From Candidatus Methylomirabilota bacterium (lineage in GTDB: Bacteria; Methylomirabilota; Methylomirabilia; Rokubacteriales; CSP1-6), in contig DASTCJ010000210.1 in NCBI GenBank assembly GCA_035605575.1, positions 8,515-72,514 of the forward strand: DNA of 64,000 bases, written 5' to 3'. Each line of letters opens with the position of its first letter. Position 1 is the stretch's first letter. Shown here piece by piece: positions 47,394 through 49,328 of the stretch. Under the pieces are notes generated by a model. It saw only the letters and a program-made list of their open reading frames with translations. It had not been told where the DNA came from and ran no database searches. The translations under genes were made by a program, and so were the position numbers.

Positions 47394-49328
47394 TCAGGAA
47401 GCAAACAGGTGGGCGAGCGGCTCCGCATCCTTCGGGTGGAGCTGCCGGAGAATGGTGTAGTGCTTGCGCGCCTCGTCGCGCTTCCCCTGCTGCAAGTACA
47501 CGCGCACCAAGCCGACGCGTGGCTCCACCGCGAACGCGTCACGCGCCGCCGCGTGGTGGAATTCGCGGGCGGCGGCGTCGAGTTGTCCGGTACCGGCCAG
47601 GGCCGCCGCGAGGTTCGCGCGCGCCATTTGATTCGCCGGATCGATCACCAGCGCGCGGCGAAGATAGGGCACGGCCTCGGCGAACTTGCCCTGCCGGCTG
47701 AGGGAGATACCCAGGTTGTTCAGGATGGTGGTGTCGTACTGGTCTTTGTCGAGCGCGCGCTTGAGGTGTCCCTCCGCCTCGCGAAATCGGTCGAGCCTGA
47801 TCAGTCCAAGCCCGATGCCGGCGTGGGCCTTGTCGCGCTCAGGCCGCAGTTGGAGGGTGAGATTCAGGTGCTCGAACGCCGCCTCCACACGGCCCTCGTT
47901 GACGAGATAGGCGCCGACGTTATTGTGGCAGATCGAGCATTCTGGCTCGGCGAACGCGGCGTTGAACCAGAGCGACTCCGTGTTTCGCCAGACGCGGACC
48001 TGATCCCACGTGAGCGTGCCGAGCACGACGACCCAGGCGATCATGGCCGCCGTCGCCAGCCGTGCGAGTCGTGGCTTGATATCACCACGCTCGCGTGCGC
48101 GGCCGAGCAAAGCCGGAAGACCGCCGACGAGGAGCGCAAAACCGAGGCACGAGAGGTAACTGTATCGGTCGTGCGCGAGCTGATGGCCCGCGTGCACCAG
48201 GCCACCGACCGGCGCGATGACGATCGCATAATATGCGTACGCTGCAATGCCGGCCGACCATTTGCGCGAGAGGCCGATGAGACTCACGGTGATCAGCATC
48301 GTTGCCAGCGCCGTCAGCAGGAACGGCATCTCGAAAAGCTGCGTTGGCGGCGGCAGCTCGTAGAGCGCGGACAGCCCCACCGGCAGGATAGTCTTGCCGA
48401 TGTAGAAGCACACGCTGTAGAGGGCCATCACCAGCCGCGCCGGGAGAGGATACTGCACGGTTGAGGTGAAGAACTCATGACGCGCGACGGCCCAGTAGGA
48501 GACGCAGGCGGCGATCGCCGCGATGATGAGAAATGGAACCTTCTCGAGGAGCACGCGACGGCCGGGGCCAGAAAGCCACTCTGATGGCGCAAGTTTCAGC
48601 CGGCGGAGTGGATAGATATCGATGATGAGAAGCGCGGCGGGCAAGGTCATGGTGATGGACTTGGACAGCACCGCCAGGACGAAGAACACGAGGGCGCCGG
48701 CGAGCCGACGACGTCGAGACCACCCCTCACGGTCCGTAGCGCTCACATAGGACAACACGCATGCCAGGAACATCAGCCCGGACAGCACGTCGCGGCGCTC
48801 GGTCACCCAGGCGACGGACTCCGCGCGCAGGGGATGGACACCGAAGAACAGTGCCGAGAGCGCCGCACCGGCGCGGAGCTCGAGCGTCGTCGCCCAGGGC
48901 AGGGCTCGCGACAAAAGGCGCAGGGCAAGCAGGAAGAAGATGGCGACGTTCGCGGCGTGCAGCACCAGGTTCGTGAAGTGATAGCCCCCTGACTCCATGC
49001 CCCAGAGCGTATAGTCGAGTCCGAAGGTCAACCACGTGACCGGAATGTAGTGCCCCATCAGCGTCGCGGAGAACATCCACCGCAGCTGCGTCCAACCGAG
49101 ACCTCGAAAATTTTTGTTGTCGATGAGGTTGATGGGATCGTCCCACTGCACGAACTCGTTGTAGAGACCGTGAGCGAAGACGGCCACGATGGCGAGGACG
49201 AGCGCGAGGGCGGTTTCTCGATTGCTGAGGCGGTAGCGTCTCACGCGCGCCCATGCGTGGCTCGCCCCCTGGGTCGCACGCCCGGTCGGTACGGTCGACG
49301 CCGTCATGATGTCGGTGCGAGGCTGCAT
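47394..49328 (-). CDS. Polytopic membrane + TPR protein (GT-C-fold, TMTC/PMT-like glycosyltransferase candidate)
   Basis: 644-aa ORF with about 11 or more TM helices. The first periplasmic loop is YNEFVQWDDPINLIDNKNF (acidic DD motif). The C-terminal ~200 aa form TPR repeats. It sits between pilA and pilD. Confidence 0.75.
   Translation of the reverse strand: MQPRTDIMTASTVPTGRATQGASHAWARVRRYRLSNRETALALVLAIVAVFAHGLYNEFVQWDDPINLIDNKNFRGLGWTQLRWMFSATLMGHYIPVTWLTFGLDYTLWGMESGGYHFTNLVLHAANVAIFFLLALRLLSRALPWATTLELRAGAALSALFFGVHPLRAESVAWVTERRDVLSGLMFLACVLSYVSATDREGWSRRRRLAGALVFFVLAVLSKSITMTLPAALLIIDIYPLRRLKLAPSEWLSGPGRRVLLEKVPFLIIAAIAACVSYWAVARHEFFTSTVQYPLPARLVMALYSVCFYIGKTILPVGLSALYELPPPTQLFEMPFLLTALATMLITVSLIGLSRKWSAGIAAYAYYAIVIAPVGGLVHAGHQLAHDRYSYLSCLGFALLVGGLPALLGRARERGDIKPRLARLATAAMIAWVVVLGTLTWDQVRVWRNTESLWFNAAFAEPECSICHNNVGAYLVNEGRVEAAFEHLNLTLQLRPERDKAHAGIGLGLIRLDRFREAEGHLKRALDKDQYDTTILNNLGISLSRQGKFAEAVPYLRRALVIDPANQMARANLAAALAGTGQLDAAAREFHHAAARDAFAVEPRVGLVRVYLQQGKRDEARKHYTILRQLHPKDAEPLAHLFAS

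Follow-up and report, generated by a model that had tools for sequence, protein, structure and literature searches.

Introduction

The gene described here has its closest counterparts in a pilin glycosyltransferase of Pseudomonas aeruginosa and in the TMTC O-mannosyltransferases of animals. TfpW, from the P. aeruginosa group IV strains Pa5196 and PA7, is a GT-C pilin O-arabinofuranosyltransferase. It has 646 aa, a cytoplasmic N-terminus, 11 transmembrane (TM) helices and, at its C-terminus, a sizeable tetratricopeptide repeat (TPR) domain in the periplasm; ArnT is its best modelling template and the tfpW gene lies directly downstream of pilA (Villela et al. 2020, bioRxiv 10.1101/2020.04.19.049825). 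Periplasmic loop 1 of TfpW contains a DDX motif whose mutation abolishes pilin glycosylation, and periplasmic loop 4 carries a Y-x6-P-F-x7-P motif (bioRxiv 10.1101/2020.04.19.049825). In this work we analysed a stretch of 64,000 nucleotides (the window) of contig DASTCJ010000210.1, from an uncultured Rokubacteria/Methylomirabilota-like soil bacterium. A gene of the window encoding a 644-aa membrane and TPR protein, hereafter GT (for putative glycosyltransferase), is located between the major pilin gene pilA and the prepilin peptidase gene pilD of a type IVa pilus (T4aP) cluster.

Other pilin glycosyltransferases are less similar to GT. TfpO/PilO (P. aeruginosa group I) and PglL (Neisseria) are inner-membrane pilin O-oligosaccharyltransferases that act in the periplasm on a lipid-linked donor, as we propose for GT, and tfpO also follows pilA directly. 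However, they belong to an unrelated family (Wzy_C / O-antigen-ligase-like), have no TPR domain and transfer preassembled oligosaccharides linked to undecaprenyl diphosphate (Und-PP). Wzy_C was not matched by GT in Pfam, where only TPR families were found.

Metazoan TMTC1-4 (CAZy GT105) are the O-mannosyltransferases of cadherins and protocadherins in the endoplasmic reticulum. Their membrane domains carry seven conserved motifs, M1-M7 (DD; SHKSYRP; RxD; KE[TQ]xxT; DW; PxxP; ERxxY), and many prokaryotes that are poorly characterised have full-length TMTC-like proteins, with both a transferase and a TPR part (PMC7801869). Neither the TMTC paper (PMC7801869) nor the TfpW preprint (bioRxiv 10.1101/2020.04.19.049825) mentions the family of the other. 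A 2025 review of bacterial O-glycosylation makes no mention of TfpW, TMTC, tetratricopeptide, GT-C or GT39, and a literature search for pilin glycosylation in Rokubacteria gave nothing specific.

GT-C fold and TMTC homology

GT is almost certainly a GT-C glycosyltransferase of the TMTC-like family that is active and faces the periplasm. Its acceptor is probably the major pilin, which would be modified on Ser/Thr while anchored in the inner membrane, the TPR arm recognising it. The gene and its parts are as follows.

47394..49328, minus strand: GT gene (644-aa GT-C and TPR protein, putative pilin glycosyltransferase), from the open reading frame (ORF), its homologues and an AlphaFold2 (AF2) model
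47940..49328, minus strand: membrane GT-C domain in the model, residues 1-463, 11 TM helices, from Foldseek, hhalign against TMTC1-4 and invariant columns
49137..49142, minus strand: codons of the putative catalytic DD motif, D63-D64, in the first periplasmic loop; invariant in 37 homologues and aligned with TMTC M1
47394..47939, minus strand: C-terminal domain, residues 464-644 and stop codon (invariant C464-x-x-C467, then about five TPR repeats; Pfam, PDB TPR matches), predicted from topology reasoning to be periplasmic

The ORF has an ATG start and high third-position GC and, as a conserved gene with thousands of homologues, is more than a chance feature. The full-length AF2 model was built from an alignment of 37 homologues with identities down to 46 % (alignment A1); in it, about five TPR hairpins come after a bundle of membrane helices (pLDDT 87.8, pTM 0.84). 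All 50 matches listed in a Foldseek search of the PDB with this model were TPR proteins, and residues 1-463 were therefore modelled separately (pLDDT 76.7, pTM 0.82). The 18 best PDB matches of this 463-residue model were all GT-C enzymes (ArnT 5f15/5ezm, Pmt1/2, Pmt4, AglB, STT3, PglB and AftA), with a probability of 1.00 for ranks 1-17 and 0.99 for AftA (rank 18) and TM-scores of 0.32-0.47. The next matches were unrelated transporters, with probabilities below 0.45 and TM-scores of 0.1-0.2. As modelled, the fold of the membrane domain is GT-C, as a first-pass annotation had anticipated from the sequence.

Pfam and PDB sequence searches recovered only the TPR part. The sole Pfam matches of GT were TPR families at residues ~470-640 (TPR_1/2/16/19 and related), in agreement with the C-terminal TPR array of the first-pass annotation and with the hairpins of the AF2 model. 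Residues 1-463 had no Pfam match even at E ≤ 10, in GT or in 12 homologues. A PDB search with the single GT sequence returned TPR matches only, and a search with the membrane-domain profile returned no match at E ≤ 10.

By contrast with these searches, profile-profile comparison related the membrane domain to TMTC1-4. The TMTC membrane domains (human and Drosophila, 8 sequences) were taken from the supplementary alignment of Eisenhaber et al. 2021 (PMC7801869) and compared by hhalign with the GT membrane-domain alignment (A2). The probability was 99.9 % (E = 2.4e-32, 396 columns), and the alignment spanned query residues 33-443 and the entire TMTC template. Many homologues bear the automatic label 'protein O-mannosyl-transferase' in the Joint Genome Institute (JGI) data, and others are named after their TPR part. 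The TMTC motifs correspond to GT residues as follows.

M1 'DD': present, D63-D64
M2 'SHKSYRP': partial, G-H93-Y-I-P96
M3 'RxD' (HPIHTEAVAGIVGRAD): present, R178-R-D180 (HPLRAESVAWVTERRD)
M4 'KE[TQ]xxT': partial, K223-S-I-T-M-T228, with Ser in place of Glu
M5 'DW': possibly Y-E324-L at best
M6 'PxxP': partial, a single Pro, P373
M7 'ERxxY': present, D387-R-Y-S-Y391

The membrane domain is homologous end to end with that of TMTC1-4; in both proteins the TPR domain comes after 11 TM helices and lies on the extracytoplasmic or luminal side (as predicted for GT), and the shared motifs are DD (M1), HP-x-x-x-E-x-V...R-x-D (M3), K...T (M4, partly) and [DE]-R-x-x-Y (M7). They also differ in several ways. 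The TM7-TM8 loop is much shorter in GT (residues 284-333), and the Pfam model of this TMTC loop, DUF1736 (PF08409), had no match in GT or in 12 homologues. TMTCs have 8-10 or more TPR repeats and GT about five. The TMTC donor is dolichyl phosphate mannose, whereas a bacterial polyprenyl phosphate sugar would be expected for GT, and the acceptors are cadherins in one case and, as we infer, pilin in the other. The likeness to TMTC/DUF1736-type families that the first-pass annotation drew from an 'F-x-x-DD...N' pattern was thus right as to TMTC, while DUF1736 itself was not matched.

Structurally, the membrane domain is matched best by ArnT and Pmt1/2/4 (GT-C_A). They have an acidic motif in the first extracytoplasmic loop, as GT does, and use polyprenyl-phosphate monosaccharide donors, the donor type proposed for GT. 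They differ in that no sequence similarity to GT is detectable with hidden Markov models, and in their soluble parts (a periplasmic domain in ArnT and a MIR domain in PMT, where GT has TPR repeats); ArnT has 13 TM helices and acts on lipid A, and PMT has 11. Since ArnT is the top structural match, GT might be an ArnT-like enzyme that acts on a lipid (lipid A) or on a glycan (a polysaccharide or a peptidoglycan-linked polymer) and lies among pil genes by accident. Non-protein acceptors are common among GT-C enzymes and the acceptor is not readable from sequence, but we consider this reading quite improbable: the closest family, TMTC, consists of protein O-mannosyltransferases and has the TPR arm in common with GT, the ArnT-type periplasmic domain differs and lacks TPR repeats, and the link with pilA and pilD is a conserved and clade-specific one that is met again in independent lineages (see below).

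Conserved residues and topology

W62-D63-D64, within the loop YNEFVQWDDPINLIDNKNF (residues 56-74), is invariant in 37/37 homologues of alignment A1, so that the acidic DD motif reported for the first loop in the first-pass annotation is indeed a conserved feature. The following residues are also invariant in A1: G92-H93...P96; H165-P-L-R168-x-E170-S-V-x-W...E177-R-R-D180; K223...T228; Y309...P316...E324-x-P326; H379; D387-R-Y-S-Y391; and C464-x-x-C467. The last of these (window 47929-47940) is located at the TM11/TPR junction, is present in 37/37 homologues and has no counterpart mentioned among the TMTC motifs M1-M7. The pair might form a disulfide in the periplasm or bind a metal.

Alignment with TMTC gives 11 TM helices, with the N-terminus inside and the C-terminus outside, which agrees with the earlier count of about 11 or more. 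This predicted topology is supported by the bias in lysine and arginine density (15 of 76 residues in the assigned cytoplasmic loops vs. 10 of 145 in the periplasmic loops). On these grounds, the conserved motifs and the TPR domain are predicted to be periplasmic.

The TPR region also resembles pilotins, and GT could be imagined as a TPR-driven pilus-assembly factor (a PilF/PilW/Tgl-like pilotin or scaffold) whose membrane domain is a mere anchor. The best NCBIfam matches of this region are PilW (TIGR02521, 66.4 bits) and Tgl (NF033762, 37.9 bits), and some homologues are named 'Tfp pilus assembly protein PilF' or 'TadD' by JGI. These scores are far under the curated cutoffs (154 and 225 bits respectively), as in generic TPR similarity, and the putative catalytic residues are invariant down to 46 % identity, which argues for an active enzyme. 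Moreover, the GT gene is missing from close relatives whose T4P machinery is the same, and is therefore not a core assembly factor, and pilotins are small outer-membrane TPR lipoproteins rather than 11-TM inner-membrane proteins. An assembly factor of this kind is very unlikely; the pilotin role was rejected for a 644-aa polytopic protein with matches below the cutoffs and a gene absent from sister loci.

The GT design is that of TfpW

GT, with its predicted topology, agrees with the published description of TfpW in length (644 vs. 646 aa), in having its N-terminus in the cytoplasm and 11 TM helices, in an acidic motif of the first loop facing the periplasm (DD in GT, DDX in TfpW), in a C-terminal TPR domain on the periplasmic side, in its best structural template (ArnT) and in a gene position directly after pilA. 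The loop 4 motif Y-x6-P-F-x7-P of TfpW can be compared with the invariant Y309-x6-P316-V-x8-P326 in the equivalent loop of GT, which is one residue longer and has Val for Phe. The first-pass annotation had held that the TfpW architecture differs, a statement that the published description contradicts. Its proposal of a TPR-guided pilin O-glycosyltransferase is partly supported, by the GT-C fold, the TMTC homology, the TPR domain and the pil linkage, though not by the contrast with TfpW or by the argument from the Ser/Thr-rich pilin tail (see below); given the match, it describes the known TfpW design and not a new one.

Differences between the two systems were also found. The tfpW gene lies between pilA and tfpX/tRNA-Thr in Pseudomonas and the GT gene between pilA and pilD, with no tfpX-like gene at the GT locus. 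The hosts are different, the pilins of the GT locus have no Cys, and relatives of GT reach three tandem gene copies. TfpW transfers D-arabinofuranose. DprE1, DprE2 and DPPR synthase (D-arabinofuranose pathway) were absent from the ~30 window ORFs scanned with Pfam, and D-arabinofuranose is therefore not indicated; the sugar of GT is probably a different one.

Linkage to pil genes and copy number

The GT gene stands in a co-oriented cluster with the order pilB-pilC-pilS-pilR-pilA copy 2-pilA copy 1-GT-pilD-minor pilins/pilY1-pilMNOPQ. The genes of the cluster are listed here.

50650..56667, minus strand: upstream part of the co-oriented T4aP cluster (pilR, pilS, pilC, pilB)
54931-56667, minus strand: pilB (ORF; Pfam marks on syntenic orthologues)
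53691-54914, minus strand: pilC (ORF; Pfam marks on syntenic orthologues)
52055-53674, minus strand: pilS (ORF; Pfam marks on syntenic orthologues)
50650-52062, minus strand: pilR (ORF; Pfam marks on syntenic orthologues)
50067..50474, minus strand: pilA copy 2, the upstream copy (ORF; three C-terminal residues of the mature form unlike copy 1)
49409..49816, minus strand: pilA copy 1, major pilin and proposed substrate, with a prepilin leader and a mature form of 118 aa without Cys (ORF; orthologues with N_methyl/T2SSG Pfam marks)
46640..47392, minus strand: pilD, prepilin peptidase / N-methyltransferase of 250 aa (ORF; orthologues with Pfam A24_N_bact and Peptidase_A24)
35318..46643, minus strand: downstream part of the cluster, with minor pilins, PilY1, pilM, pilNOP and pilQ (ORFs; synteny with contig L080)
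42151-44940, minus strand: PilY1 (ORF, downstream part)
39368-40471, minus strand: pilM (ORF, downstream part)
35318-37714, minus strand: pilQ (ORF, downstream part)

The ORF coordinates agree with the co-orientation and spacing given in the first-pass annotation: 80 nt separate pilA copy 1 (stop codon 49409-49411) from the GT start at 49328, and 1 nt separates the GT stop, which ends at 47394, from the pilD ATG at 47392 (MVLVPVLTFGL...). Related contigs, independently called, likewise have a 250-aa PilD and tight GT-pilD spacing.

Linkage to pil genes, whose survey the first-pass annotation had suggested, was examined from both sides, and the pilA-GT-pilD order recurred across related loci. 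With GT as the query, the 79 best genome loci were inspected. In six of them (L002-L005, L008 and L016) the GT gene is immediately preceded by pilA, with pilR/S upstream, and immediately followed by pilD; L003 is an unclassified metagenome-assembled genome, and the remaining five carry the label Rokubacteria/Methylomirabilota. About 70 others have no pil genes within 10 kb; among them are Planctomycetota, Elusimicrobiota, Gemmatimonadota and paralogues of other Rokubacteria, along with further groups. The arrangement pilA(x2)-GT-pilD was present in all five contigs L080-L084, whose GT homologues are 87, 67, 55, 51 and 47 % identical. With PilD as the anchor, 80 metagenome loci were inspected. 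GT was directly upstream of pilD in about 40 of these, while pilA was followed directly by pilD, without GT, in at least 12 clear loci and ~19 altogether. In a further four (L126, L143, L164 and L136) the slot is filled by one or two genes of the same family with only ~25 % identity. Overall, the pilA-GT-pilD order was found in more than 40 related Rokubacteria/Methylomirabilota-like loci, at identities down to ~43 %.

In a neighbour-joining tree of 129 membrane domains, all orthologous pil-linked copies formed one clade, and none of the ~83 unlinked genome homologues was inside it. Outside the clade, a family member in the Elusimicrobia genome L064, divergently transcribed, adjoins a pilA-pilD pair. 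The order kept in related loci, the single clade and the independent cases together show that the linkage is conserved, clade-specific and recurrent.

Copy number varies from none to one, two or three GT genes in the pilA-pilD slot of related loci. Three tandem copies are present in L008 (5618-11854) and two in L016 (9998-13846). Two tandem copies of the divergent lineage (~25 % identity) are present in each of L126 (334-3962) and L143 (131-3786), and a single divergent copy lies in or beside the slot in L164 and L136. The slot is hypervariable and accessory. GT behaves as an accessory gene of variable presence and copy number, in apparent analogy to the pilin accessory cassettes of P. aeruginosa.

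Size and spread of the family

A word-indexed search returned more than 3,700 GT homologues, the closest being 99 % identical and from a JGI metagenome. With the A2 profile, 92,237 cluster representatives (clustering at 50 % identity) were matched at E ≤ 1e-3, of which 22,873 reached E ≤ 1e-30. Judged from these profile matches, GT is a member of a very large bacterial branch of the TMTC-type family. The catalytic domain has no Pfam or NCBIfam model in spite of the 92,237 cluster matches, a large gap in domain-database coverage.

The pilins as proposed acceptor

The two pilA copies are 88.4 % identical in DNA (41 mismatches in 371 nt) and their leaders differ, yet the mature pilins differ at three C-terminal residues only, which indicates strong purifying selection on both copies rather than a recent gene conversion. 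Many relatives have kept the duplication. In four related metagenome pil loci without GT (L122, L134, L139 and L148), the Cys-free 117-123-aa pilin type is absent and the pilins are longer (144-152 aa) and contain four Cys, giving C-terminal loops closed by disulfide bonds; pilin type and accessory content thus vary together.

The last 30 residues of the pilins are 37-40 % Ser/Thr, as the first-pass annotation had remarked. This tail cannot serve as evidence, since the orthologous pilins of loci without GT have it too. The only pilin column that differs between loci with and without GT is mature position 91, after a conserved Trp (window ~49493-49495 in copy 1). It is Gly in 11 of the 13 Cys-free pilins of loci without GT. 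Position 91 is a possible glycosylation site and a weak lead, confounded by phylogeny.

Several observations weigh against the pilin as acceptor or limit the case for it. Cys-free pilins of loci without GT have an equal or higher Ser/Thr content and share the tail ...T-I-[ST]-A-T-G-D-x-T-T-[IV]-x-V-P of the GT-bearing loci, so the pilin tail gives no specific support. Ser/Thr at position 91 is found in 20 of 31 pilins (65 %) from loci with GT vs. 8 % from loci without it, a comparison confounded by phylogeny. The family is huge and most of its members (of the 92,237 representatives) are away from pil genes, so family membership alone cannot name the acceptor. The likeness to TfpW (AAM52060.1) is one to its published description; a tblastn search of plasmid sequences for TfpW gave one archaeal partial match only. 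No donor-synthesis or flippase genes are next to GT, and the only glycosyltransferase of family GT2 in the window that resembles polyprenyl-phosphate-sugar synthases is 24 kb away, beside another membrane and TPR gene. Finally, the organism is known only from metagenomes.

These points bear on the possibility that GT is a TMTC-like protein O-glycosyltransferase whose main acceptor is not the major pilin but minor pilins, PilY1, PilQ/PilP or many envelope proteins; in the last case it would be a general O-glycosyltransferase with no tie to pil genes beyond a common operon. The fold and family fit it equally well, GT closely precedes pilD, the minor pilins and pilY1, the same Ser/Thr-rich tail exists without GT, and the many paralogues away from pil genes imply that the family serves other acceptors too. 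However, the major pilin gene or genes always come immediately before the slot, as they do for TfpW and TfpO. The minor-pilin/PilY1 content varies (L080 vs. L082 and L083) whereas the pilA-GT adjacency is constant, and a general O-glycosyltransferase is not expected to vary from 0 to 3 copies in one slot. We consider a main acceptor other than the major pilin unlikely on balance, and the major pilin the probable one.

Expression signals

Two RNA structures flank pilA copy 1.

50015..50046, minus strand: canonical intrinsic terminator (GGGGAGAGAGCAATCTCTCCCC and T-run) after the upstream pilA copy 2, from sequence
49359..49402, minus strand: GC-rich stem-loop that lacks a U tract, within the 80 nt separating pilA copy 1 from GT (RNA fold -34.8 kcal/mol, z = -2.76)

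Pilin-terminator-accessory cassettes occur in Pseudomonas, and attenuated read-through into the accessory gene has been proposed (PMC11841053). The spacer stem-loop is possibly an attenuator or an RNA-stabilising hairpin and, as a structural hint only, would fit attenuated read-through into GT. The 1-nt gap between GT and pilD suggests co-translation with the prepilin peptidase.

A second gene group and the donor pathway

According to Pfam, the ~30 other ORFs scanned in the window are ribosomal, transport, aromatic amino-acid and other housekeeping genes, together with a group 24-27 kb away from GT. This group is on the plus strand.

15639-16991, plus strand: sigma-54 response regulator
within 15639-23464, plus strand: 341-aa protein
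17959-20514, plus strand: 851-aa membrane and TPR protein
20516-21547, plus strand: GT2
~21550-22533, plus strand: S-adenosylmethionine (SAM) methyltransferase
22523..23464, plus strand: GT2 with C-terminal TM helices, polyprenyl-phosphate-sugar synthase type (Pfam Glycos_transf_2)

The best NCBIfam matches of the last GT2 were AglJ, PpgS and ArnC-like, all below cutoff. It could make the lipid-linked donor of GT, as a candidate that nothing ties to the pil gene. The whole group (15639-23464) may be another envelope glycosylation module. The 851-aa protein was considered as a paralogue of GT and rejected: BLASTP found only TPR similarity, and hhalign gave a probability of 2 % against the membrane-domain profile and 0 % against TMTC.

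At the left of the window (41-8524, plus strand) is the end of a ribosomal protein operon (L6, S5, L15, SecY, methionine aminopeptidase, S11, S4, RpoA and L17), which may help to place the organism phylogenetically.

Proposed mechanism and significance

In the mechanism that we propose, a polyprenyl-phosphate-linked sugar would be synthesised on the cytoplasmic side of the membrane and flipped to the periplasmic side, where the GT membrane domain would bind it via the DD, R-x-D, K223 and D-R-x-x-Y motifs. The TPR arm would hold the periplasmic globular domain of the membrane-anchored pilin, and the sugar would be passed to Ser/Thr hydroxyls of PilA ahead of pilin polymerisation. GT would be expressed below the pilA level, by read-through past the stem-loop, together with pilD. 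Glycosylation by TfpW and TfpO masks pili from pilus-specific phages. The glycan made by GT would probably alter the pilus surface, for example by such masking. If GT does act on pilin, its variation in presence and copy number at a single slot suggests that the chemistry of the pilus surface is under selection, with pilus-binding phages as a plausible agent.

GT is no new kind of system. Its design and gene position were known from TfpW, bacterial TMTC-like proteins had been reported, and JGI already labels homologues as O-mannosyltransferases. What is new is the lineage, the pilA-GT-pilD arrangement, the copy-number variation and the quantified TMTC homology of a pil-linked enzyme.

A broader reading, offered tentatively and rather doubtful as a whole, is that the pilA-pilD slot is a fast-evolving 'pilus glycosylation island' holding 0-3 TMTC-type enzymes of at least two divergent lineages. 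Together with TfpW, these would be bacterial counterparts of the cadherin O-mannosyltransferases, and the TMTC design (GT-C and TPR arm, acting on beta-rich adhesive surface proteins) might have arisen for pili, probably under phage pressure, long before its use on cadherins.

If GT is a pilin glycosyltransferase, TfpW-type pilin glycosylation, so far experimentally restricted to Pseudomonas, would reach an uncultivated Rokubacteria/Methylomirabilota-like lineage and another position in the pil cluster. It would also join two literatures, those of bacterial TfpW and of the animal TMTC O-mannosyltransferases. The small Cys-free pilin would then be a tractable acceptor for the uncharacterised bacterial TMTC-like family of ~92,000 cluster representatives.

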